DNA of 45,394 bases from a virus. Numbering within the stretch: the first letter of the stretch is position 1; the number at the start of each line of letters is the position of its first letter. Under the pieces are notes generated by a model, which did not search any database, had not been told where the DNA came from, and saw only the letters and a list, made by a program, of their open reading frames with translations. Position numbers and translations under genes: made by a program. The stretch is taken from positions 1-45,394 of IMG/VR virus record IMGVR_UViG_3300010376_000016; one strand, written 5' to 3'. Positions 1-45,394 of the stretch are shown here, one piece after another.

Positions 1-123
1 CTACACACAAGGAGGAACCACGATGGAAACACTCACTGCTACGCCGTGCGTGAACTGCGAGTCACGCTCATACGTCGAGCACGTTGACGTGAAGATCGCA
101 GGCGAGCTCTACCGCGTCTGCGA
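1..123. repeat. Terminal direct repeat, identical to 45272-45394 (circular assembly overlap or terminal redundancy)
   Basis: Compared base by base; 123/123 identical. Confidence 0.97.
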
Positions 124-592
124 CGTCTGCCTCGCTGACCATGACGGACCCGGCAAGTTTGAGCAGGTCCGACATGACGACGAGACGCTCGCGACTGCGC
201 TCGCGCTCTATGCGCTCGATCTGGCTGGGAGCTCGGAAGACTTTCTGTCCGACGAATGGAACGGTCATGCGTCGCGCATCGGCGCGTTCGTGCTCACGGT
301 GGACGGTCAAGGGTTCGTGAACTTCGAGGAGTTTGACTCGGAGGAGCTCGCGTCGAAGTGGCTCTACTCGCTGGAAGACGACGGCTTCGGCGCGTCCGAG
401 GATGATGCGTTCATCTCGTACGAGTCGAATGGGATCTACGCCTCGTTCGGCGGGAAGTCACTCGGTAGGTTCGAGCGCTTCACGCGAGCCAAGGCTGCGA
501 TCAGTGTCGAAATGCGTCGGCAGGGCTACTTCCCGAACGTGTTCGTCTCAGGCGAGCACGGGCCCGGCGTCCGTCGGATCGACGTCTGGTAA
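23..592 (+). CDS. Hypothetical acidic early protein with N-terminal CxxC...CxxC zinc ribbon (189 aa)
   Basis: ORF track; ATG 5 nt after AAGGAGGAAC; CVNC...CDVC motif; high GC3. Confidence 0.75.
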   Translation: METLTATPCVNCESRSYVEHVDVKIAGELYRVCDVCLADHDGPGKFEQVRHDDETLATALALYALDLAGSSEDFLSDEWNGHASRIGAFVLTVDGQGFVNFEEFDSEELASKWLYSLEDDGFGASEDDAFISYESNGIYASFGGKSLGRFERFTRAKAAISVEMRRQGYFPNVFVSGEHGPGVRRIDVW

Positions 593-594
593 CC

Positions 595-659
595 GGGAGC
601 GCTTCGGCGCTCCCCACGGTCCAACAGGGGCCAGAATCACTCACAAGGAGGAACGAACG
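595..659 (+). repeat. Intercistronic cassette copy B: hairpin GGGAGCGC-TTCG-GCGCTCCC, CACGGTCCAACAGGGGCCA box, CACAAGGAGGAAC SD
   Basis: Read directly; begins 3 nt after stop of upstream ORF, ends at ATG 660. Confidence 0.85.
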
Positions 660-1043
660 ATGTCGCGCACGATCACACTCAGCGCCAAGCAGTACGACCT
701 GCTGAGCTCGATCATGGGCTGGCTCGGAGACGAGGCTCACGCGGATCCCGCGTGGCTCGATCGCTTCGAGACGACCGATCATGAGCTCGACTGGCTCATC
801 CACGATCTGAACCCCGAGGCTCGTACGCTCTCGGGCGACGCTCGCACGGTGGAGCTCCAGGACGGCTCGACGCTCGCGGTGGACATCACTGACGACGGAG
901 AGACCGAGGGAGACCGCTCACGCGACGTTCCCTCGATCGGGCTCATCCGCGACGGCTACGTCGCAGTCGAGCTCACTTGGAACGAGGCCTACGCGCTCTC
1001 GTCGCATCTGAACGTCGTCACTCGCATCGCGGAGCACGGCTGA
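660..1043 (+). CDS. Hypothetical early protein (127 aa)
   Basis: Internal ATG of ORF 333..1043 placed directly after the SD motif; N-terminal extension is Arg/Ser-rich shadow. Confidence 0.7.
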   Translation: MSRTITLSAKQYDLLSSIMGWLGDEAHADPAWLDRFETTDHELDWLIHDLNPEARTLSGDARTVELQDGSTLAVDITDDGETEGDRSRDVPSIGLIRDGYVAVELTWNEAYALSSHLNVVTRIAEHG

Positions 1044-1050
1044 GCTCGGC

Positions 1051-1097
1051 GGAGCCCTACGGGGCTCCCACGGTCACCACTACACAAGGAGGAACAC
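1051..1097 (+). repeat. Intercistronic cassette copy C: hairpin GGAGCCC-TACG-GGGCTCC, CACGGTCAC box, ACACAAGGAGGAAC SD
   Basis: Read directly. Confidence 0.85.
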
Positions 1098-1454
1098 ATG
1101 GCGAAGTTCATCGTCATTCCGCTCTACGACCATGCACCCGCCGACGAGGTCCAGGAGATCCTGGACGGGCTCGCAGCGATGCAGTTCTCGCTCGCGCCGT
1201 ACTACGCCGAGGCGGAGCTCCCGCTCAACGTGGACGACGAGGACATCCCGCCCGACGAATGCCGGGCGATCCGCGAACGGCGCGAGCTCACGCAGTCGAT
1301 CAACACGGCTATCGGCCTGAAGGAGACCGCTGACGGCTCGGAGCTCGCGCTCCTGCGCTCGTTCGGAGTGCTGCGCGGGATCGTCAACGAGTACCGCGAC
1401 GGGGGCGATCAGATGGTCGAAGACTGCGACTGCGGCGAACACACGGGGAGCTAG
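1098..1454 (+). CDS. Hypothetical acidic early protein (118 aa)
   Basis: ORF track; ATG 2 nt after SD motif. Confidence 0.75.
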   Translation: MAKFIVIPLYDHAPADEVQEILDGLAAMQFSLAPYYAEAELPLNVDDEDIPPDECRAIRERRELTQSINTAIGLKETADGSELALLRSFGVLRGIVNEYRDGGDQMVEDCDCGEHTGS

Positions 1455-1507
1455 CGCTCCCCCACGGCTCAACAGGGGCCAAGACACACTCAACAAGGAG
1501 GAATCAC
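1445..1507 (+). repeat. Intercistronic cassette copy D: hairpin GGGGAGC-TAGC-GCTCCCC (stop codon TAG in the loop), CACGGCTCAACAGGGGCCA box, AACAAGGAGGAAT SD
   Basis: Read directly. Confidence 0.85.
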
Positions 1508-1723
1508 ATGACTGCTACCGACGTCGCCACTGCGTGGGACGTGGCGCTCGATCTGCTCGCGATCGTTGACGAGTCCCCCTCGGGACGGCTCGTCGGGTCC
1601 GAGGACACGACGATCGCGGAAGTGAAGCCCGGAGAGGGCTCGCGTCCGACGACGTTCCACGTCGTACTCGACAACGGCCAGCTCTTCACGATCAGCGTCG
1701 AAGACACGGGCATCTGGTCATGA
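1508..1723 (+). CDS. Hypothetical early protein (71 aa)
   Basis: ORF track; SD motif upstream. Confidence 0.7.
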   Translation: MTATDVATAWDVALDLLAIVDESPSGRLVGSEDTTIAEVKPGEGSRPTTFHVVLDNGQLFTISVEDTGIWS

Positions 1724-1842
1724 GTCACCTGATCCACATGACGATCATCGTCGGCGTGACGATCGCGCTCTGGGTCGGACTGATCGCGCTCGTGATCTAC
1801 GGCGTGATGATCGCCCGTGAGAAGTGGCAGGCACGACGATGA
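1720..1842 (+). CDS. Single-pass membrane micro-protein (40 aa, MSHLIHMTIIVGVTIALWVGLIALVIYGVMIAREKWQARR)
   Basis: Hand-translated; ATGA overlap with both flanking genes; hydrophobic core. Confidence 0.55.
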   Translation: MSHLIHMTIIVGVTIALWVGLIALVIYGVMIAREKWQARR

Positions 1843-2057
1843 CCACGTCCACGTTCAAGCTCGCGGGGATCCTGCTCAGCCTGCACGACGACGAATACGA
1901 GCACGACTACCTCGACGTGCTCGAAGAGCTCAAGACGCTCCTGCCCGAGCAGACGTTCAAGACGCTCTGCGAGGAGACGGAAACCTGCCCCGTCCACGTC
2001 TGCGACATCCAGATCTGCCTCGATGACAAGGAGCACGGATTGGAGGTCTACGAGTGA
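1839..2057 (+). CDS. Hypothetical acidic early protein (72 aa)
   Basis: ORF 1824..2057; the ATG at 1839 makes an ATGA overlap with the upstream stop. Confidence 0.65.
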   Translation: MTTSTFKLAGILLSLHDDEYEHDYLDVLEELKTLLPEQTFKTLCEETETCPVHVCDIQICLDDKEHGLEVYE

Positions 2058-2164
2058 CGGAGCTCGCGATCCTGCTCACGCTCGTCCAGGTCGGGCTCGT
2101 ACTCAGGTGGCTCGTGCTCGCGCACGTCGCGATCCGCAACAACCGACGCAACTGGGGCGCGTAA
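2054..2164 (+). CDS. Single-pass membrane micro-protein (36 aa)
   Basis: Hand-translated GTG ORF with GTGA overlap; stop TAA lies in the loop of hairpin E. Confidence 0.5.
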   Translation: MTELAILLTLVQVGLVLRWLVLAHVAIRNNRRNWGA

Positions 2165-2204
2165 GCGCCCCCACGGTCAACAACCAAACAAGGAGGAACC
2201 ACTC
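2154..2204 (+). repeat. Intercistronic cassette copy E: hairpin GGGGCGC-GTAA-GCGCCCC, CACGGTCAAC box, AACAAGGAGGAAC SD
   Basis: Read directly. Confidence 0.85.
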
Positions 2205-2561
2205 ATGACCAAGTGGATCGGAATGATGCTCGGCCTTGCGCTCTGCGCCATCGCGCTGACTGCCTGCACAACAGGCCAGTCGGCGTCAGGACAGGACGCG
2301 AACGGCACGTATAACTCGGGCGCTGCGCCCGCGAAGAACGCGATCAGCCTGAGCCAGTACCGCTCGGTCGCGATCGGCACACCCTGCTCGGACATCACGT
2401 TCGAGTTCGGCCCACCCGCCGACAAGCAGGACTTCTCGACGGGCGGATACCACGACGTGACGCTGATGTACAACGACGTCAACGCGAGCGGTGACTTCGC
2501 AATCCCGCAGTACTCGTTCGACTGCGTGAACGGCAAGCTCGATAGCAAGGCGAACGTGTAA
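2205..2561 (+). CDS. Putative lipoprotein (118 aa; signal peptide with lipobox LTAC); candidate superinfection-exclusion or surface protein
   Basis: MTKWIGMMLGLALCAIALTAC TTG... matches the signal peptidase II pattern. Confidence 0.75.
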   Translation: MTKWIGMMLGLALCAIALTACTTGQSASGQDANGTYNSGAAPAKNAISLSQYRSVAIGTPCSDITFEFGPPADKQDFSTGGYHDVTLMYNDVNASGDFAIPQYSFDCVNGKLDSKANV

Positions 2562-2710
2562 TGAACGCCGTCATCGTGCTCGTCCTCTTCCTGCTCGTCG
2601 CCTTCATAGTCCTGTCGCCTTGGATCGCGGTCGTCCGCATCCGGGAGACGGTCGCCAGGCTGCAGGAATGGCAACGACTGCACGAAGCCGAGCATCAGCA
2701 CAGTGAGTAA
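2561..2710 (+). CDS. Single-pass membrane micro-protein (49 aa)
   Basis: Hand-translated; TAATG overlap with lipoprotein stop; hydrophobic N-terminus. Confidence 0.5.
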   Translation: MNAVIVLVLFLLVAFIVLSPWIAVVRIRETVARLQEWQRLHEAEHQHSE

Positions 2711-2712
2711 GT

Positions 2713-2761
2713 GGGGCGCGAAAGCGCCCCCACGGTCAACCAACGACAAGGAGGAACAACG
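2713..2761 (+). repeat. Intercistronic cassette copy F: hairpin GGGGCGC-GAAA-GCGCCCC, CACGGTCAAC box, GACAAGGAGGAAC SD
   Basis: Read directly. Confidence 0.85.
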
Positions 2762-3169
2762 ATGACTCAACTGGACGTCGTCGGCATCGGGGACATCGCC
2801 TCGATGACCGGCGTCAACCGGATCACCATCTCGATGTGGCAGCGGCGTGGGCACTTGCCTCCGCCTGACGCGACACCGTCGTGTGGTCCGGTCTGGTGGC
2901 GCTCGACAATCGAGCGCTGGATGCTGGGCACAGGCCGGACGCGAGTCGGGCGCGTGACCAACGAGACGATCACGCCGAAGGATCTCGCAGCGGAGCTCGG
3001 GATCGACCCGAAACGGTTGCGCGATTGGCTCCGTGCGACCCATCCCCGGGCGCTCGAAGCGAAGCACACGACGTGGGCGATCGACCGCGCGACGGCAGAC
3101 GAAGCCCGCGCGTACTTCGAGCCCGGCGTTCTCGCCGTGCCCGATCAGGCCTGGAGAGCCAGGACATGA
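2762..3169 (+). CDS. MerR/excisionase-type HTH DNA-binding protein (135 aa); candidate excisionase/RDF
   Basis: IGDIASMTGVNRITISMWQRRGHLPPP...VWWRSTIERW resembles the Xis/AlpA-type HTH; ATG follows the SD motif. Confidence 0.6.
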   Translation: MTQLDVVGIGDIASMTGVNRITISMWQRRGHLPPPDATPSCGPVWWRSTIERWMLGTGRTRVGRVTNETITPKDLAAELGIDPKRLRDWLRATHPRALEAKHTTWAIDRATADEARAYFEPGVLAVPDQAWRART

Positions 3170-3378
3170 AGGTCCGCATCGCATACACGACCGAAGTCAG
3201 TGACGACTACCGCCGAGCGATCAACGTGTTCTACGGCCTGCCGGGACTCGCGTCCCGCGACGAGGTGAAGAACTGGCTGCTCAACTACGGCTCGTCGCAA
3301 GACGACGACCTGATGCACGATCTCCAAGAGCACGAACGGCAGGTCCACGACCTGATCGGTGAGCTCGGGAGCGACTGA
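3166..3378 (+). CDS. Hypothetical protein (70 aa)
   Basis: ATGA overlap with upstream stop; last gene of the early-left operon. Confidence 0.6.
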   Translation: MKVRIAYTTEVSDDYRRAINVFYGLPGLASRDEVKNWLLNYGSSQDDDLMHDLQEHERQVHDLIGELGSD

Positions 3379-3401: not shown

Positions 3402-4181
3402 TCAGGGCCGGGCGCAGGCTGCGCCCATCTCCAGGTTCGGCACCAGCCCCGAGGGGCCATCCGATTCACCAATCCTACTGCGCTGGCGCTGCTTTCGCAG
3501 CGTCCGCTTGACGTGCTCGCGGGAGAGCCCGAGCCGGGCTGCGATCGCGCCCGGCTTGAAGCCGTCGGCAGCGAGCTCGGCCACGGTCGCGTTCACGCTC
3601 ATTCGCTCGTGCTCCATCAGCCACGGCGGTACCCGGATCACGCGCATCCGAAGCGTGATCGTCACGACACCGAGGTCGAGCTCCAGCTGGTCGAGCTCAT
3701 CGAGGCGGCGCGGCTGCTGCTCGACCAGGACGACCCGGACAAGCGTGTGACGACGGGGCGCGTCGAGCGCGAGCTCGGCTAGCCGCTGGCGCACCTCACG
3801 GTAGCTCCCGCGCCGCTCGTACGCCTCTCTCAGCCGCTCCCACTGGTAGGGCGACTCGTTGGTCGCGTCCGGTGTCCGACGCCGGGGAGCGACCTCGACG
3901 GGCAGCGCGACGGCCTCCTGAACGGGCAGGCCGACGTAGGCGTCCCATTCGAGCTCGCCGTGCTGGCGGCGACGCCAGCCGACGCCGTCGCAGACAAGGC
4001 AGAGGGCGAACTCGCGCCGTCGGCGGATCCAGCCGGTCCGCTTGCACGTCTCGCAGGGGACGTAGCGCGACGCGGCGGGCCCTGACTCTGGCCGCAGCGA
4101 CGTGCGCGGCTGCGGGTATGGGTCGTTCAACGTTTCCAGCAGGAGACGGACCCGCTGGACGCGCTCCACGAGGTCGGACAC
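3402..4181 (-). CDS. Transcriptional regulator (259 aa): two CxxCxGxG zinc-finger motifs plus C-terminal LuxR/sigma-70 region-4-like HTH; candidate immunity repressor or late regulator
   Basis: CETCKRTG and CLVCDGVG motifs; VAELAADGFKPGAIAARLGLSREHVKRTLRK; GTG start after GGGAG; divergent from the Cro-like gene. Confidence 0.6.
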   Translation of the reverse strand: MSDLVERVQRVRLLLETLNDPYPQPRTSLRPESGPAASRYVPCETCKRTGWIRRRREFALCLVCDGVGWRRRQHGELEWDAYVGLPVQEAVALPVEVAPRRRTPDATNESPYQWERLREAYERRGSYREVRQRLAELALDAPRRHTLVRVVLVEQQPRRLDELDQLELDLGVVTITLRMRVIRVPPWLMEHERMSVNATVAELAADGFKPGAIAARLGLSREHVKRTLRKQRQRSRIGESDGPSGLVPNLEMGAACARP

Positions 4182-4290: not shown

Positions 4291-4318
4291 TTGACGTCGT
4301 GGCAAACCGCTTTATCGT
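4291..4318 (+). promoter_or_regulatory. Sigma-70-like promoter candidate TTGACG-16 nt-TATCGT
   Basis: Read in the 380-bp divergent intergenic region. Confidence 0.35.
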
Positions 4319-4394
4319 GTCCCCGTTACATCGCCCAAGGACTCTCCTGGACGAGGGCGTCTGACGGCGCAGGATGGGTGTGGGTCTCTGCGGG

Positions 4395-4450
4395 CCCCGC
4401 CTCCACGCAGGCGGGGAACCCTCCCCCTTGGACCGCGAAAAGGGGAAGGG
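4395..4450. promoter_or_regulatory. Two adjacent GC-rich hairpins (CCCCGCC/GGCGGGG 7 bp; CCCTCCCCCTT/AAGGGGAAGGG 10 of 11 bp)
   Basis: Arms paired by hand. Confidence 0.5.
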
Positions 4451-4473
4451 AAATGCGTTTGCATTTCCTGCCG

Positions 4474-4479
4474 TATAAT
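4474..4479 (+). promoter_or_regulatory. Perfect TATAAT -10 hexamer in an AT-richer island, preceded by the inverted repeat AAATGC-N4-GCATTT (4451-4466)
   Basis: Read directly; no canonical -35 at 16-18 nt. Confidence 0.45.
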
Positions 4480-4484
4480 CGAAG

Positions 4485-4545
4485 TTGCAACACCCTTGCA
4501 GCAGTCTTGCAGCAGATCTGCCTGAGATCTGCCTATCATCTGCCT
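4485..4545 (+). repeat. Operator-like phased repeats: TTGCA(A/G)CA x3 at 4485, 4496, 4507, then ATCTGCCT x3 at 4516, 4527, 4538, each set spaced exactly 11 bp
   Basis: Positions counted from the sequence lines. Confidence 0.8.
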
Positions 4546-4562: not shown

Positions 4563-4847
4563 GTGGCGAGGATCAACTCGTTGCGCTTGACTGCTATCCA
4601 CGCGAGCGAGGAGCGGCATGACGGCCGGTTTCACGAGCGAATCCGACGGCTTCGCCTGCAGCAGGGCATGAGCCAGCAGGAGGTCGCTGACGTGACCGAG
4701 ATCAGCGTCAGGACGTACCGGGAGTGGGAGAGCGGCCGGACCGTGCCCTACCCAGGCCCGAACCTGCGCCGGATCGTCGGCCTCTTCCGGGTGACGCCCA
4801 CCTACCTCCTGCGTGGCGACGAGGAGGGGCTCGATGCCTTCGATTGA
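4563..4847 (+). CDS. XRE-family HTH regulator, Cro-like (start uncertain: TTG 4485, GTG 4563 or TTG 4581)
   Basis: RIRRLRLQQGMSQQEVADVTEISVRTYREWESGR is a typical XRE HTH. Confidence 0.8.
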   Translation: MARINSLRLTAIHASEERHDGRFHERIRRLRLQQGMSQQEVADVTEISVRTYREWESGRTVPYPGPNLRRIVGLFRVTPTYLLRGDEEGLDAFD

Positions 4848-11835: not shown

Positions 11836-11902
11836 GTACGGCCCGACTAGTGCGGCTAGAATGCGATGGTCTAAATCCATCGACCTCACACAAGGAGGAA
11901 CC

Positions 11903-37279: not shown

Positions 37280-37570
37280 GTGACCGACATCTACGGACAC
37301 CTCAGCGAGGCGCAAGAACTGCTCGACATGGCGATAGAGAACCAGCGCCACGGCGACCACATGAGCGTCCTGCGAACGCTCGACGGAGCTCTCAAGCGGA
37401 TGCAGGAGGCGGCGATCGCGACCGTGCAGAAGGCGTACGACGGAGGCGCGAGCAAGAAGGCGATCGCGCAAGCGCTCGACATCCCGGCCTCGACGCTGCG
37501 CGGGCTGAAGAAGACGGACGGCTCCCGGGGCCCGAAAGCCCTGGAGGAGCTCCTGAGACTCGACCAGTGA
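37280..37570 (+). CDS. HTH DNA-binding protein (96 aa)
   Basis: GTG after ACACAAGGAGGAACG; SKKAIAQALDIPASTLRGLKK. Confidence 0.6.
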   Translation: MTDIYGHLSEAQELLDMAIENQRHGDHMSVLRTLDGALKRMQEAAIATVQKAYDGGASKKAIAQALDIPASTLRGLKKTDGSRGPKALEELLRLDQ

Positions 37571-37816: not shown

Positions 37817-37917
37817 TTGGTCGGCCCGGATGGTAGCCGCCCACGGGCAGCCGCTCGACTTGGTTTACTTCCAGGTCACCGCAGCAGCCCAGCAGCGAAG
37901 GAAAGGACGACCCCAAT

Positions 37918-42770: not shown

Positions 42771-43481
42771 CTAGCCCTGTATTGATGCGGGATCTAGGGA
42801 GGGTGGCTCTGGCTGGCTCTGGCCCTCCAGCAGGCTTGCCGCGAGCTCCTGCATCGCCTGCCACGACATGGATCCGAGCTCCTCAGCCGAGCTCGGGAGC
42901 TCCACGCTGATCGACGCAGAGCTCGGCGGATAGAGGAGCTCCAGAGCCCGCAAGGCCGCTTGTTGCCTAGCGATTGTGCCGAGCTCGTCGTCGTCTAGCG
43001 GCGCGTCCACGATCGCAGCCGCGAAGTCTTCCGCGCGAATCTGCGCAGCGACGCGCGCCGCTTGCAGGGGGCTTGCCGCTCGTCTGGCGCTGATGCCCAA
43101 CGTTGCGCGAGCTCTAGCGCGGGCTCTCTTCTGCTCGTGGCCCTGCTTCGAGAAGCGTCCAGGATCCCGAGCTATGCCCGTTCCAGCATGCCCAGCGCAG
43201 AGCCCGCCGAACCTGTGCGAGCGTGTCCCCCTGCAGCGCGAGCCGTCTGGCTTGATGACTCGACAGCGTCCATCGTCTGGCCCCTCGAATAACTCATACG
43301 TGTCAGGCAGGGTGTAACTTTGTGTTTCACTCTGTGACTCGTCGGGCACGACTGCCGACGCTGAACCTTGAAAACCGAGCGTCACGAGCTCCGCCGAGCG
43401 GTCTCCCTCCGTGGGACGGTTAGACCCGTCCGCGTGTTGGCCCTCATTGGCTGCGAGCTCCTGCCGCTCGGTTTCGCGCAC
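42771..43481 (-). CDS. Hypothetical protein (236 aa) with Cys/His motif RCRVIKPDGSRCRGTRSHRFGGLCAGHAG; weak candidate for small terminase or DNA-binding protein
   Basis: ORF track; GTG after GGAGGAGG. Confidence 0.6.
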   Translation of the reverse strand: MRETERQELAANEGQHADGSNRPTEGDRSAELVTLGFQGSASAVVPDESQSETQSYTLPDTYELFEGPDDGRCRVIKPDGSRCRGTRSHRFGGLCAGHAGTGIARDPGRFSKQGHEQKRARARARATLGISARRAASPLQAARVAAQIRAEDFAAAIVDAPLDDDELGTIARQQAALRALELLYPPSSASISVELPSSAEELGSMSWQAMQELAASLLEGQSQPEPPSLDPASIQG

Positions 43482-43673
43482 CTTGAAACCTCCATATTTC
43501 CTCCTCCTTACCCTGGATCACGATCCAAGCGGAGGAGCTCTCTTGACCCTGACGACCGCGACGGCGGAGCGCTTCGGCGCTGACTGGGGAGAGCTCCGCT
43601 CGTCCGCTCGTGATCACCAGTCGAATGGGGACGGGAAGGCTCCCTGTCGTGGGGAGCCGAGCTCCTCCCGATC

Positions 43674-43703
43674 CACGGTCACACACTCACACAAGGAGGA
43701 ACC
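43674..43703 (+). repeat. Intercistronic cassette copy G (first of the operon): CACGGTCAC box plus CACACAAGGAGGAAC SD, no canonical tetraloop hairpin
   Basis: Read directly. Confidence 0.8.
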
Positions 43704-43946
43704 ATGGCAGCGCATACGTCCACCCATATCGAGGGGCTCGGCGTGTTCACGATCACAAGTCACGTTGTCGAGTCGCTCGCGCTGAAGCCCTACATCGAGT
43801 TTCGCCTAGAGCATCGCTCCGAGCTCGATGGCTCGTTTCTCGGCTTCTGCGCGATGGGTTCGCACCTGTTCTGCACGGAAGCGCTGGAGCGCATCCAAGA
43901 CGAGCAGGCAGCCGGGAAGGCCGAGCTCCGAGCTCGCACCCAGTAG
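43704..43946 (+). CDS. Hypothetical early protein (80 aa)
   Basis: ORF track; SD motif. Confidence 0.7.
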   Translation: MAAHTSTHIEGLGVFTITSHVVESLALKPYIEFRLEHRSELDGSFLGFCAMGSHLFCTEALERIQDEQAAGKAELRARTQ

Positions 43947-43953
43947 CGCACGG

Positions 43954-44016
43954 GCTCCACGCGAGTGGAGCTCCACGGCTCAACAGGGGCCACACTCACA
44001 CAAGGAGGAACACACG
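43954..44016 (+). repeat. Intercistronic cassette copy H: hairpin GCTCCAC-GCGA-GTGGAGC, CACGGCTCAACAGGGGCCA box, SD
   Basis: Read directly. Confidence 0.85.
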
Positions 44017-44259
44017 ATGTCACGCAAGGATTACCGGGCGATCGCTGCCGCTCTCGCGGAAGTCGAGAGCATCATCGAGACGACGGGCGATGCTGAGGGA
44101 CACTCAGCCTCAACCCTTCGGCTCGTCGTGGACGCAGTCGGCGGAGCTCTCAAGCGCGACAATGCGCGCTTCGATTACGAGCGTTTCCAGGCTGCCGCTC
44201 TGCCGATCCAGACGGAGCGGAAGGTTCGCATCATCCGCGAGACCCTCGCACGGTCGTAA
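44017..44259 (+). CDS. Hypothetical early protein (80 aa)
   Basis: ATG after the SD motif, in frame with ORF 43828..44259. Confidence 0.7.
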   Translation: MSRKDYRAIAAALAEVESIIETTGDAEGHSASTLRLVVDAVGGALKRDNARFDYERFQAAALPIQTERKVRIIRETLARS

Positions 44260-44264
44260 GCGCT

Positions 44265-44310
44265 GGAGCTCCTCCGGGAGCTCCCACGGTCACACACACA
44301 AGGAGGAACC
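44265..44310 (+). repeat. Intercistronic cassette copy I: hairpin GGAGCTCC-TCCG-GGAGCTCC, CACGGTCAC box, SD
   Basis: Read directly. Confidence 0.85.
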
Positions 44311-44544
44311 ATGTCGGATCAGACTTATAACGGCTGGACGAACTATGAAACGTGGAATGTCGGGCTCTGGCTCATGAATGAGGAGCCGCTCTACCACGAA
44401 ACCATGCGCATCGTTGCGCGGCCTAACGCGGCGGCCGAGCTCGAATCGTTCGTGCGCGAGCTCGCGCCGAACGGCTTCGAGACCGAGCCCTATTCGCTCG
44501 ATGACGTGAACTGGGACGAGCTCGCAGAAAGCCTGAATGACTGA
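44311..44544 (+). CDS. Hypothetical early protein (77 aa; NGWTNYETWNV motif)
   Basis: ORF track; SD motif. Confidence 0.75.
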   Translation: MSDQTYNGWTNYETWNVGLWLMNEEPLYHETMRIVARPNAAAELESFVRELAPNGFETEPYSLDDVNWDELAESLND

Positions 44545-44602
44545 GACCGCTTCGGCGGTCTCCACGGCTCAACAGGGGCCAAACACACAAGGAGGAAACG
44601 CA
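44543..44602 (+). repeat. Intercistronic cassette copy J: hairpin GAGACCGC-TTCG-GCGGTCTC, CACGGCTCAACAGGGGCCA box, SD
   Basis: Read directly; the stem starts inside the upstream TGA. Confidence 0.85.
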
Positions 44603-44977
44603 ATGTACGAGCACCTGAACACCTGGACCCCGAACGGTTTCCCGTCTGCCTGTGAGGCACGGCTCGACCTGTGGGAGACAGGCAGGACGCGCGACGGGAA
44701 GCACGAGCTCCGCTATGCGCTCTGGCTCATGGCGGAGGGTCGCTCCGCGACTATCGAGGGTGAAGACTTCTGGCCCTCCCCGCTTCACGCGCTTGACTCG
44801 GACGAGAGCGCTGCAGGCCTGCTCGGCTTCCTCGCATACGACGCGGAAGCGCTCAGGTTCGGCACGGATGACGAGCTCATCATTCAGCGCTACTCAGAAC
44901 GTCAGCGCGAGCTCCTCGAACGGCTCGGAGACGAGCTCAGTATGTGGAGCTCGGAGCTCGAAGACGGAGCCGCTTAG
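44603..44977 (+). CDS. Hypothetical early protein (124 aa)
   Basis: ATG after the SD motif. Confidence 0.7.
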   Translation: MYEHLNTWTPNGFPSACEARLDLWETGRTRDGKHELRYALWLMAEGRSATIEGEDFWPSPLHALDSDESAAGLLGFLAYDAEALRFGTDDELIIQRYSERQRELLERLGDELSMWSSELEDGAA

Positions 44978-45017
44978 CGGCTCCCACGGTCACACACAAC
45001 ACAAGGAGGAACCTGCA
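44966..45017 (+). repeat. Intercistronic cassette copy K: hairpin GGAGCCGC-TTA-GCGGCTCC (stop TAG spans the loop), CACGGTCAC box, SD
   Basis: Read directly. Confidence 0.85.
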
Positions 45018-45221
45018 ATGACTGGTACTGCCGATCTGAGTTTCGAGCAGATTTTCACGATCCATCGCTCCGCTCAGGAGACGAGCTCACACATACATCG
45101 TGTGCTCATCCACCCGGGCTACACCGCAAAGGCGGTCCGCGTCGTCTTCGAGTGCGGCTCACGCTCATTCGCATTCGGCGTCCTGCGCGACGGTAGGCGC
45201 GTTCCCGTAGAGACGCTCTAG
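45018..45221 (+). CDS. Hypothetical early protein (67 aa)
   Basis: ATG after the SD motif. Confidence 0.7.
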   Translation: MTGTADLSFEQIFTIHRSAQETSSHIHRVLIHPGYTAKAVRVVFECGSRSFAFGVLRDGRRVPVETL

Positions 45222-45228
45222 TCACATG

Positions 45229-45293
45229 GCCCCGCTGCTCGCGGGGCTTCACGGCTCAACAGGGGCCAGAACTACACACAAGGAGGAACCACG
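45229..45293 (+). repeat. Intercistronic cassette copy A: hairpin GCCCCGC-TGCTC-GCGGGGC, CACGGCTCAACAGGGGCCA box, SD (3' part duplicated at 1-22)
   Basis: Read directly. Confidence 0.85.
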
Positions 45294-45394
45294 ATGGAAA
45301 CACTCACTGCTACGCCGTGCGTGAACTGCGAGTCACGCTCATACGTCGAGCACGTTGACGTGAAGATCGCAGGCGAGCTCTACCGCGTCTGCGA
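45272..45394. repeat. Terminal direct repeat, identical to 1-123
   Basis: Base-by-base comparison. Confidence 0.97.
45294..45394 (+). CDS. Truncated duplicate of the 5' end of the 23..592 gene (assembly overlap, not a separate gene)
   Basis: Identical to 23-123. Confidence 0.9.
   Translation, partial: METLTATPCVNCESRSYVEHVDVKIAGELYRVC

Follow-up and report, generated by a model that had tools for sequence, protein, structure and literature searches.

Introduction

Hairpins that process or stabilize messages between cistrons are exemplified by the early RNase III sites of T7, the intercistronic C(UUCG)G hairpins of T4 and the repetitive extragenic palindrome (REP) stabilizers of malEFG. The context of a ribosome site can itself be a nuclease signal, as T4 RegB cleaves at an extended Shine-Dalgarno (SD) motif (PMC3014915). 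In T4-type phages, the promoter-early stem-loop (PeSL), composed of a stem-loop, a promoter and an SD-ATG, flanks the ORFans of hyperplastic regions (Arbiol et al., 2010, PMC2839356; Comeau et al., 2014, PMC4122927), and chimeric PeSLs mark the indels between RB49 and phi1 (PMC2839356; PMC4122927). The start-associated sequences (SAS) of cluster K phages and their extended forms (ESAS) had a function still unknown in 2025 (PMC3203893; PMC12699233). The present work concerns a virus genome of 45,394 nucleotides (IMG/VR record IMGVR_UViG_3300010376_000016, positions 1 to 45,394; hereafter the window), in which eleven copies of a composite cassette, designated A to K along the + strand, punctuate an arc of small genes. 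With a confidence somewhat better than even, the cassettes are regarded here as promoter-less, PeSL-like intercistronic mRNA modules of one polycistronic operon, doubling as recombination linkers.

Distribution of the Cassettes

The pattern CACGGY-N{6,34}-AAGGAGGAA had 11 matches on the + strand but none on the - strand or in any of 100 shuffled sequences, bearing out the eleven copies that the initial annotation had placed here; the motif ACAAGGAGGAA was invariant in 11/11 cassettes. The arc consists of 16 small open reading frames (ORFs) on the + strand, running from 43704 to 45271 and continuing across the contig junction from 23 to 3378, and the junctions among them comprise 10 gaps of 40–72 nt and 5 overlaps of 1–4 nt. 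A cassette is present in each of the 10 non-overlapping junctions as well as in the 5′ leader of the first arc gene, and the unit of hairpin, GGTCA and SD occurs nowhere else in the window. The two ends of the window are identical over 123 bp (1–123 = 45272–45394), i.e., the contig is circular or terminally redundant. Owing to this overlap, cassette F (45229–45296) continues into positions 1–25 of the window, and the cassette and the start of the ORF at 23–592 are both present twice.

Ten of the coordinates listed initially are hairpin starts, while the eleventh, 43674, is the box start of copy A. The long form with the additional segment CAACAGGGGCCA had been assigned to copies A, B, D, H, and J; it is carried by B, D, F, G, and I (the 2nd, 4th, 6th, 7th, and 9th copies, with box starts at 43974, 44563, 45250, 615, and 1463), and the "extra segment" proved to be a small second hairpin (hp2). 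The resulting order of short (S) and long (L) forms, S L S L S L L S L S S, agrees with the view that the two mostly alternate.

Structure of the Unit

Each unit is composed of a GC hairpin (hp1), a box with the core GGUCA, hp2 in five copies, a G-depleted C/A-rich linker, AAGGAGG and ATG, in this order. The stem of hp1 is perfect over 7–9 bp in 10 copies and imperfect in copy A. Relative to the last base of the upstream stop codon, its start ranges from 12 nt 5′ to 7 nt 3′, and since the hairpin often overlaps that codon, hp1 can be considered part of the 3′ end of the upstream cistron. In the window copies, CACGG follows 0–4 nt 3′ of the hairpin, and the ATG lies 4–8 nt past AAGGAGG, a 7-nt perfect SD at an optimal distance from the start codon.

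All eleven cassettes are on the + strand. Among the short copies, cassette A (43651..43706), in the leader of the first arc gene, has an imperfect hairpin, the box CACGGTCACA at 43674, a C/A linker, AAGGAGG at 43693 and ATG at 43704. The remaining short copies all possess an SD between box and start codon: C (44265..44313; hp1 GGAGCTCC-TCCG-GGAGCTCC, box 44285, ATG 44311), E (44966..45020; hp1 GGAGCCGC-TTA-GCGGCTCC, box 44985, ATG 45018), H (1051..1100; hp1 GGAGCCC-TACG-GGGCTCC, box 1069, ATG 1098), J (2154..2207; hp1 GGGGCGC-GTAA-GCGCCCC, box CACGGTCAAC at 2172, ATG 2205), and K (2713..2764; hp1 GGGGCGC-GAAA-GCGCCCC, box CACGGTCAAC at 2731, ATG 2762). The long copies, likewise each with an SD, are B (43954..44019; hp1 GCTCCAC-GCGA-GTGGAGC, box 43974, hp2 43977–43991, ATG 44017), D (44543..44605; hp1 GAGACCGC-TTCG-GCGGTCTC over the stop codon, box 44563, hp2 44566–44580, ATG 44603), F (45229..45296; hp1 GCCCCGC-TGCTC-GCGGGGC, box 45250, hp2 45253–45267, ATG 45294), G (595..662; hp1 GGGAGCGC-TTCG-GCGCTCCC, box 615, hp2 618–632 in a GGTCC variant, ATG 660), and I (1445..1510; hp1 GGGGAGC-TAGC-GCTCCCC, box 1463, hp2 1466–1480, ATG 1508). 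In copies E (TAG), I, and J, the stop codon is located within the hp1 loop.

The nature of hp1 was evaluated from its variation within the window and in the relatives described below. In 37 tetraloop hairpins from 7 phages, 82% of the stem cells were paired as compared to 59% in column shuffles, and 66 double-sided stem changes were counted against 25.5 ± 3.5 in the shuffles, the observed value being reached by 0/500 of them. Stem alignments slid out of register had 38–53% of their cells paired. The C-G pair closing the hp1 loop was nearly invariant. Tetraloops were present in 46 of 76 cassette hairpins, and 17 UNCG together with 16 GNRA loops accounted for 33/46 of them (72%, with 4.7% expected; P ~1e-33); the stable classes are thus enriched 15-fold, while their reverse-complement classes were found in only 2/46. 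This strand-specific preference for extra-stable RNA tetraloops places the function of the hairpin in the sense-strand RNA, and a DNA cruciform or an opposite-strand site is unlikely as neither would show a sense-only tetraloop preference. Judged by these comparisons, hp1 is an RNA hairpin selected for stability, the stem sequence of which is free to vary.

In the long form, hp2 has the fold GG(CU/UC)C-AACAG-GGGCC, including a G-U pair on the sense strand. The linker between box and SD contains 4 G in 125 nt, as compared to 33% expected (P ~1e-16), and is C/A-rich and T-poor (13 T in 125 nt). The motif ACAAGGAGGAA with a C/A-rich leader was also observed at 11890, 37267, and 37805 (+), without hairpin or box, where it is followed by the integrase gene, the helix-turn-helix (HTH) gene at 37280 and the ORF at 37817, respectively. 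Its presence before these three genes outside the arc shows that the window phage favors the SD part of the unit in general.

Four copies (B, C, H, and I) have a second CACGG ≤25 nt 5′ of hp1 (Poisson P ~1e-3), within 43943–43953, 44244–44264, 1030–1050, and 1437–1444; in C and H, it falls in the last codons of the upstream ORF. Nearly every hairpin of two related phages, L017 and L020, has (C/A)ACGG on both sides. The second CACGG could have been left behind by past crossovers, or it could be an additional recognition site.

Cassettes in Related Phages

The exact long- and short-box patterns had no match in IMG/VR, and the nine matches of the box pattern in JGI metagenomes were all due to chance, none being accompanied by a hairpin or an SD. 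A pattern of fixed spacing has no match, even in the window, because the spacing varies. As exact box patterns were absent from IMG/VR and met only by chance in JGI metagenomes, relatives were sought through proteins. The route was a conserved 236-aa protein encoded divergently from the arc (42771–43481, - strand), and some relatives were reached through the three-way-junction motif of the leader described below. The 236-aa protein is 48–63% identical in all relatives and has invariant C73, C83, C95, and H98 as well as long Arg/Ala-rich helices; it had no match in Pfam, among PDB sequences or by fold (structure model pLDDT 71). The DUF6551 protein, used as an anchor in IMG/VR, gave no relative; the alignment of the anchor protein was too diverse for a genome scan, and a smaller alignment gave no relative. 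Among 185,579 species genomes, a terminase alignment had a single match, L016 (DATILR010000470.1, 48,750 bp; terminase 74% identical), the only relative in the GTDB species genomes, on a contig binned with a Candidatus Binatus metagenome-assembled genome. As the L016 contig is itself phage-sized, this is weak evidence for Candidatus Binatus as the host.

Ten related uncultivated phages (loci are designated by L numbers) were found to have the same architecture, and syntenic contigs place the cassettes between the same two flanking genes. The unit of the initial annotation is a real, conserved and non-generic intercistronic cassette. The units of L017, L020, and L119 read (C/A)ACGG-hp1-CA(C/A/T)GGTCAAC-C/A linker-AAGGAGGAAC. 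In L012, L013, L019, L124, and L131, hp1 is lengthened by GAGG/CCUC pairing and followed by GGTCA(A/C)C(C). The unit of L015 is stop-AGGAG-hp1-(T)GACGGT-hp2-CCAAACAAGGAGGAACACC, in which the hp2 stems are all different and compensated. An SD-like AGGAG stands directly after each stop codon of the L015 arc (L015:5463–9648, - strand of the locus), and the hp2 loops of this phage, mostly NACC, could form a pseudoknot with the GGU of the linker. The core common to the ten phages is GGUCA, located 0–5 nt 3′ of hp1. When all collected loci were scanned on both strands, the combination of hairpin, GGTCA, and SD was confined to the arcs and to the arc sense, with 1 exception; hairpin plus GGTCA without the SD occurred at background level.

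Two of the collected loci depart from this scheme. L011 has kept hairpin-CAACACACAC-SD, and the box is absent; a consensus promoter, TTGACA-17-TACAAA, lies directly 5′ of its first hairpin-linker-SD unit, which places the unit in the mRNA, as its 5′ end. L014 has no hairpin-box unit and possesses a different repeat of ~90 nt; its gaps of ~90 nt (L014:7981–9168, - strand of the locus) contain ...CCGTTCGCGGCAT(G/A)GGC...GTCCAAGGAGGATGCAAGACA. L016 carries hairpin-CCACCACCAC-SD units together with a TTGACT-17-TAGATG promoter.

Gene Turnover and Recombination at the Cassettes

The terminases of the window, L011, L012, and L013 are 77–82% identical, yet their arcs hold almost entirely different genes. 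The arc of the window shares only the MerR/excisionase-like gene with any relative, and the other arcs have scattered gene-sized blocks in common, in different orders. Orthologous ORFs carry the box-SD type of the resident phage, e.g., the genes starting at L012:8151, L015:7147, and L013:5181. The gene ending ...EEGYAAQ* keeps the hairpin GCCGCGCA-GTGA-TGCGCGGC, with the stop codon in the loop, in L017, L119, and L131, and in each of these phages the hairpin is followed by the phage's own box. Because this gene retains its hairpin across phages with differing boxes, hp1 can be assigned to the upstream ORF, and it looks to have been selected individually. The segment from box to SD is a homologous repeat that follows the genome and not the gene.

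The suggestion of the initial annotation that the unit is a recombination linker gained direct examples, with homology breakpoints lying inside the cassette in two pairs of phages. L017 and L020 are 81–91% identical. At one point, a single chimeric cassette of L017 stands in place of two L020 cassettes and the additional 122-aa ORF between them; the chimera equals the left L020 copy in its 5′ part and the right one in its 3′ part, with the crossover in GGCACGGTCA. Between L013 and L019, 95% identity extends across the leader as far as CTCGGTCACCCA in the box of their first cassette, and the two are unrelated from the linker onward.

Recombination at the cassettes is thus demonstrable and the copies are strongly alike within a genome, and ACAAGGAGGAA is found before three genes outside the arc without hairpin or box. 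It could be argued from these observations that the spacer has no function beyond a good ribosome site, being copied with incoming genes, and that the hairpins are incidental GC palindromes. This explanation appears very improbable, as it would not account for hairpin sequences that diverge while their pairing persists, for a 15-fold enrichment of stable tetraloop classes on one strand only, for a GGUCA core kept in ten phages whose arcs share almost no genes, or for the extreme G depletion of the linker.

Transcription and Processing Signals

The arc was scanned for promoters, and neither a sigma-70-like site nor a -35/-10 match was found, which is in agreement with the initial remark that the box lacks a sigma-A look. 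A promoter plus leader would not fit within the unit as the distance from hairpin to SD is only 15–32 nt. A scan of the arc for terminators revealed no hairpin followed by a U-tract; as no convincing U-tract terminator was detected elsewhere in the window either, the terminator style of the host could not be calibrated. An intrinsic terminator (GC hairpin with a U-tract within 0–2 nt) was ruled out, since CACGGUCA comes directly after the hairpin.

These results bear on the proposal that the cassette is a terminator-promoter pair in the strict PeSL sense, with the box read by a host alternative sigma or a phage factor. The hairpins do resemble terminators, with their GC-rich stems and UUCG or GNRA loops; the conservation of the box is not explained by pairing to rRNA, as there is none; and the position of the unit is as in PeSLs (PMC2839356). 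However, in addition to the missing -35/-10 match and the short space between hairpin and SD, the linker is T-poor, there is no U-tract and CACGGUCA would form a strong RNA-DNA hybrid, while the relatives use ordinary sigma-70 promoters 5′ of the first unit. Moreover, no RNA polymerase or sigma factor was recognized among the scanned proteins, of which those of 964 and 495 aa are without assignment. A terminator-promoter function is thus highly improbable.

Other known elements were considered as well. No credible match for the cassettes was obtained in Rfam at gathering or relaxed thresholds. An RNase III site requires roughly ≥20 bp of (interrupted) double helix, and a processing site of the T7 early type was ruled out as the stems are only 7–9 bp. 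The attC sites of integrons are 57–141 bp long, with paired R″/L″ and L′/R′ core sites, and depend on an IntI integrase. An integron attC array was ruled out since the hairpins span 18–20 nt without internal core sites; the sole recombinase found in the window is a phage tyrosine integrase, far from the arc. The GGUCA box is not known to match any nuclease motif.

A Structured RNA in the Arc Leader

Between the divergent 236-aa gene and cassette A, the arc leader contains a 64-nt element (43534..43597, + strand) that folds into a three-way junction. It consists of P1 (43534–43542 with 43589–43597), the single-stranded J1/2 TTGACCCTGACGA (43543–43555), P2 (43556–43567), and P3 (43568–43581). 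Ten phages fold this element independently into the same junction, in the order P1, 13–15 nt of single-stranded UUGACCCUGA(U/C)GACC, P2, P3 with a UUCG loop, 4–7 nt, and P1. All three helices vary in sequence between phages and stay paired, with G-U pairs only on the arc-sense strand, whereas the junction sequence UUGACCCUGA(U/C)GACC is invariant or nearly so. The fold is based on independent single-sequence predictions; RNAalifold on a MAFFT alignment under-called the structure as helices of unequal length were misaligned. The element had no match in Rfam even at E up to 10. A hammerhead ribozyme was rejected. In that fold, stems I and II are joined by CUGANGA and stems II and III by GAA, with a single H as the cleavage site; the element does contain CUGA(U/C)GA, but its P2 and P3 are separated by 0–1 nt and not by GAA, and 4–7 nt follow P3. 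The sequence TTGACCCTGAYGACC was found in at least 119 stretches of IMG/VR; among the matches listed, only L119, L124, and L131 were judged to be real junction elements, the remaining ones being without fold or context. TTGACCCTGAYGACC encodes the peptide D-P-D-D-P, which probably accounts for many of its matches. With covariation in three helices, the element represents an unclassified structured RNA and, if linked to the cassettes, would be a new regulatory principle.

The leader element is present once per genome in exactly the ten phages with GGUCA-core cassettes and in neither L011 nor L014, and UGACC, which is exactly complementary to GGUCA, stands twice in its junction. The match could be fortuitous, could mean that the RNAs pair, or could mean that one DNA site recurs here in the reverse orientation. 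Co-occurrence and complementarity together make the link between leader and cassettes a lead.

In one proposal, cassettes and leader RNA would be one system, in which the UGACC repeats (43543–43555) pair with GGUCA in cis or as a small RNA. The leader RNA would recognize GGUCA beside each hairpin, by pairing or through a recruited factor, and would govern and coordinate processing, translation or anti-termination (read-through) at every cistron. This proposal overlaps the one favored here and is considered unlikely. The box GGUCAA is complementary to the junction UUGACC; both elements occur together in the ten phages; L015 is altered alike in its junction (GAGACC...GACCGUC) and its box (GACGGUC); and the tie of the cassettes to the genome would make sense if the partner RNA were genome-specific. 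However, most copies offer only 5–6 contiguous bp, for which the post hoc chance is roughly 0.01–0.05, and the nearly invariant junction leaves no real covariation test. Furthermore, the long forms of the window break the GGUCA core, and the tree of the neighboring protein is star-like, so that the co-occurrence may reflect one or two events. If true, the leader requirement would force the cassettes of one genome to stay alike during gene exchange, and the system would amount to a novel form of cis/trans RNA control over an entire operon in a DNA phage.

In another proposal, a phage regulator would bind the box as DNA, in the manner of the cluster A stoperators; the immunity repressor or another HTH protein would in this way silence or modulate arc transcription, and the inverted GGTCA pair of the leader would be the operator. 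The box is asymmetric, in a single orientation and intergenic only; its copies are alike within a genome and different between genomes, as immunity specificities are; the leader has two GGTCA-like sites 9 nt apart on the other strand; the long form of the window resembles two tandem box-like 10-mers; and the phage is temperate with several HTH proteins. On the other hand, the box always stands 0–5 nt past an RNA-type hairpin and 10–30 nt before an SD, a placement needless for a DNA site, and it is confined to a 5-kb arc and not spread genome-wide. The palindromes of the CI/Cro-like region (4395–4532) are unlike the box, and the leader "sites" fall in the conserved single-stranded junction of a covarying RNA. 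Taken together, a DNA site is rather unlikely.

Proposed Role of the Cassettes

The arc is best read as an operon of small, hypervariable accessory genes, the cassettes of which are transcribed and act mainly at the mRNA level. As modules of this operon, they would operate as follows. By locking up the GC-rich end of the upstream gene, hp1 would serve as a barrier to 3′ exonucleases and as a folding insulator, while the G-free linker would leave the ribosome site open, so that each foreign ORF could be translated efficiently and independently of its neighbors. As for the box, it would be recognized, most likely to direct an endonucleolytic cleavage 3′ of hp1 and 5′ of the ribosome site that releases stable monocistronic mRNAs; in L015 and in the long form of the window, the cut would fall between hp1 and the second hairpin, leaving a hairpin on both products. 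Because the box-SD segment of 25–45 bp is repeated in direct orientation, ORF-sized indels could arise by homologous recombination, and recombination between the copies would insert or delete whole ORFs without harming expression, in the manner of the PeSLs of T4-type phages but with no promoter in the individual unit.

Several points weigh against this interpretation. We infer the processing, the stabilization and the translational effects alike from sequence. The box core GGUCA is absent from the five long-form copies of the window (GGCUCA, GGUCCA), and a single sequence-specific reader of the box is not obvious as the long forms break it. The hairpins could act as partial terminators if the rules of the host differ. 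The breakpoints bounded by cassettes are seen in relatives and not in a close relative of the window, and homology ending at spacers is also expected from ordinary phage mosaicism.

Phage and Genomic Setting

The window is a complete or terminally redundant phage contig with a unique length of 45,271 bp and a GC content of 66%, and independent assemblies of this genome exist in ENA and Logan. Its proteins include a large terminase, an SU10/P22-type portal, a major head protein and a tyrosine integrase, as well as a CI/Cro-like pair formed by a 259-aa HTH protein (3402–4181, - strand) and an HTH_3 protein ending at 4847 (+); the phage is temperate, with several HTH proteins. No tRNA was found in the window. 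The actinophage framing of the initial annotation found no footing, as no DNA similarity was detected against 50,697 phage records and the terminase is at best 30% identical to that of any isolated phage; the 189-aa arc protein of the window also had no phage match.

The arc proteins of the window are singletons with almost no Pfam or PHROG family match. At its 3′ end, the arc closes with the MerR/excisionase-like HTH gene (2762–3169) and a 70-aa ORF, converging on the 259-aa regulator. Translationally coupled genes at 1720–2208 and 2205–2710 (+) encode very small hydrophobic ORFs and a predicted lipoprotein of 118 aa (2205–2561, lipobox LTAC), a content resembling superinfection-exclusion or lysogenic-conversion modules. 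The region at 4291–4532, between the 259-aa HTH regulator and the HTH_3 gene, contains a promoter-like TTGACG-16-TATCGT (4291–4318) and three operator-like perfect palindromes (4395–4416, 4449–4468, and 4512–4532), none resembling the cassette box. The hexamer GAGCTC is present in 112 copies in 45 kb, with ~15 expected from base composition; 56 of them are in the arc region, and the density is highest at 40–45.3 kb and 0–5 kb of the window. The palindromes ATCGAT, ACGCGT, and ACCGGT are absent from the window (0 vs. ~15 expected each), which suggests restriction-site avoidance.

Comparison with Known Systems

The cassette is not an ordinary spacer, and sequence comparison provides good evidence for its RNA structure and for a role in gene shuffling, in an uncharacterized phage lineage. 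The two likenesses proposed at the outset, to SAS and to PeSL, hold as analogies, the cassette being a member of neither family.

With the intercistronic processing and stabilizer hairpins, the cassette would share a stable hairpin left at the 3′ end of the upstream message and UUCG loops, and by analogy its conserved SD context may be a nuclease signal; it differs in stems of 7–9 bp, too short for RNase III. It may also be regarded as a natural counterpart of the insulator-plus-ribosome-binding-site parts used in synthetic operons. The stoperators of cluster A (PMC9283540; PMC6550527) are similarly short asymmetric sites oriented with transcription and placed in short intergenic gaps, with copies alike within a genome and divergent between genomes. 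However, stoperators are distributed genome-wide over both arms, with neither a hairpin nor an SD as a fixed neighbor, and the repressor that binds them is known, whereas all 11 cassettes are located in one ~5-kb arc and fixed beside an RNA hairpin.

Similar to SAS, the cassette is an asymmetric repeat with an SD core a few nucleotides before the ATG (3–8 nt before the start in SAS), in one orientation, only at non-structural genes with a real gap upstream, with an extra upstream element in about half of the copies and conserved positions that do not pair with 16S rRNA. Nevertheless, the cassette reads ACAAGGAGGAAC and SAS reads GGGATAGGAGCCC, and there is no relationship between the phages. 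The 13-bp SAS consensus GGGATAGGAGCCC with ≤2 mismatches (PMC3203893) does not describe the cassettes, in which the invariant motif is ACAAGGAGGAA. The arms of ESAS are conserved 17-bp imperfect inverted repeats, the deviations of which do not support RNA pairing, whereas the cassette stems vary freely with compensatory changes and RNA tetraloops. The cassettes thus offer a second, structurally clearer system for the question of SAS-like function, which has been without an assigned function since 2011.

The likeness to PeSL is evolutionary. Each is a short composite unit, opened by a GC stem-loop behind the upstream ORF and closed by SD-ATG, both are repeated in direct orientation between ORFans of a hypervariable region, and in both, relatives differ by an ORF plus a cassette and a chimeric cassette is left, as in L017 and L020, with the breakpoint in the box of L013 and L019 alongside. 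In contrast to PeSL, the cassette lacks the defining sigma-70 promoter, an AT-rich segment and a U-tract and carries the GGUCA box and the G-free C/A linker instead; it is an internal spacer of one operon and not an autonomous transcription unit, in a 45-kb temperate phage of 66% GC with an SU10/P22-type portal, unrelated to T4. The cassette is hence PeSL-like in evolution without being a PeSL. In this uncultivated temperate lineage, a plug-in ORFan array is expressed through a standardized RNA spacer that is also the site of gene gain and loss. The PeSL idea is thereby carried outside the T4-type phages, in a form that has no promoter and lies wholly between cistrons.

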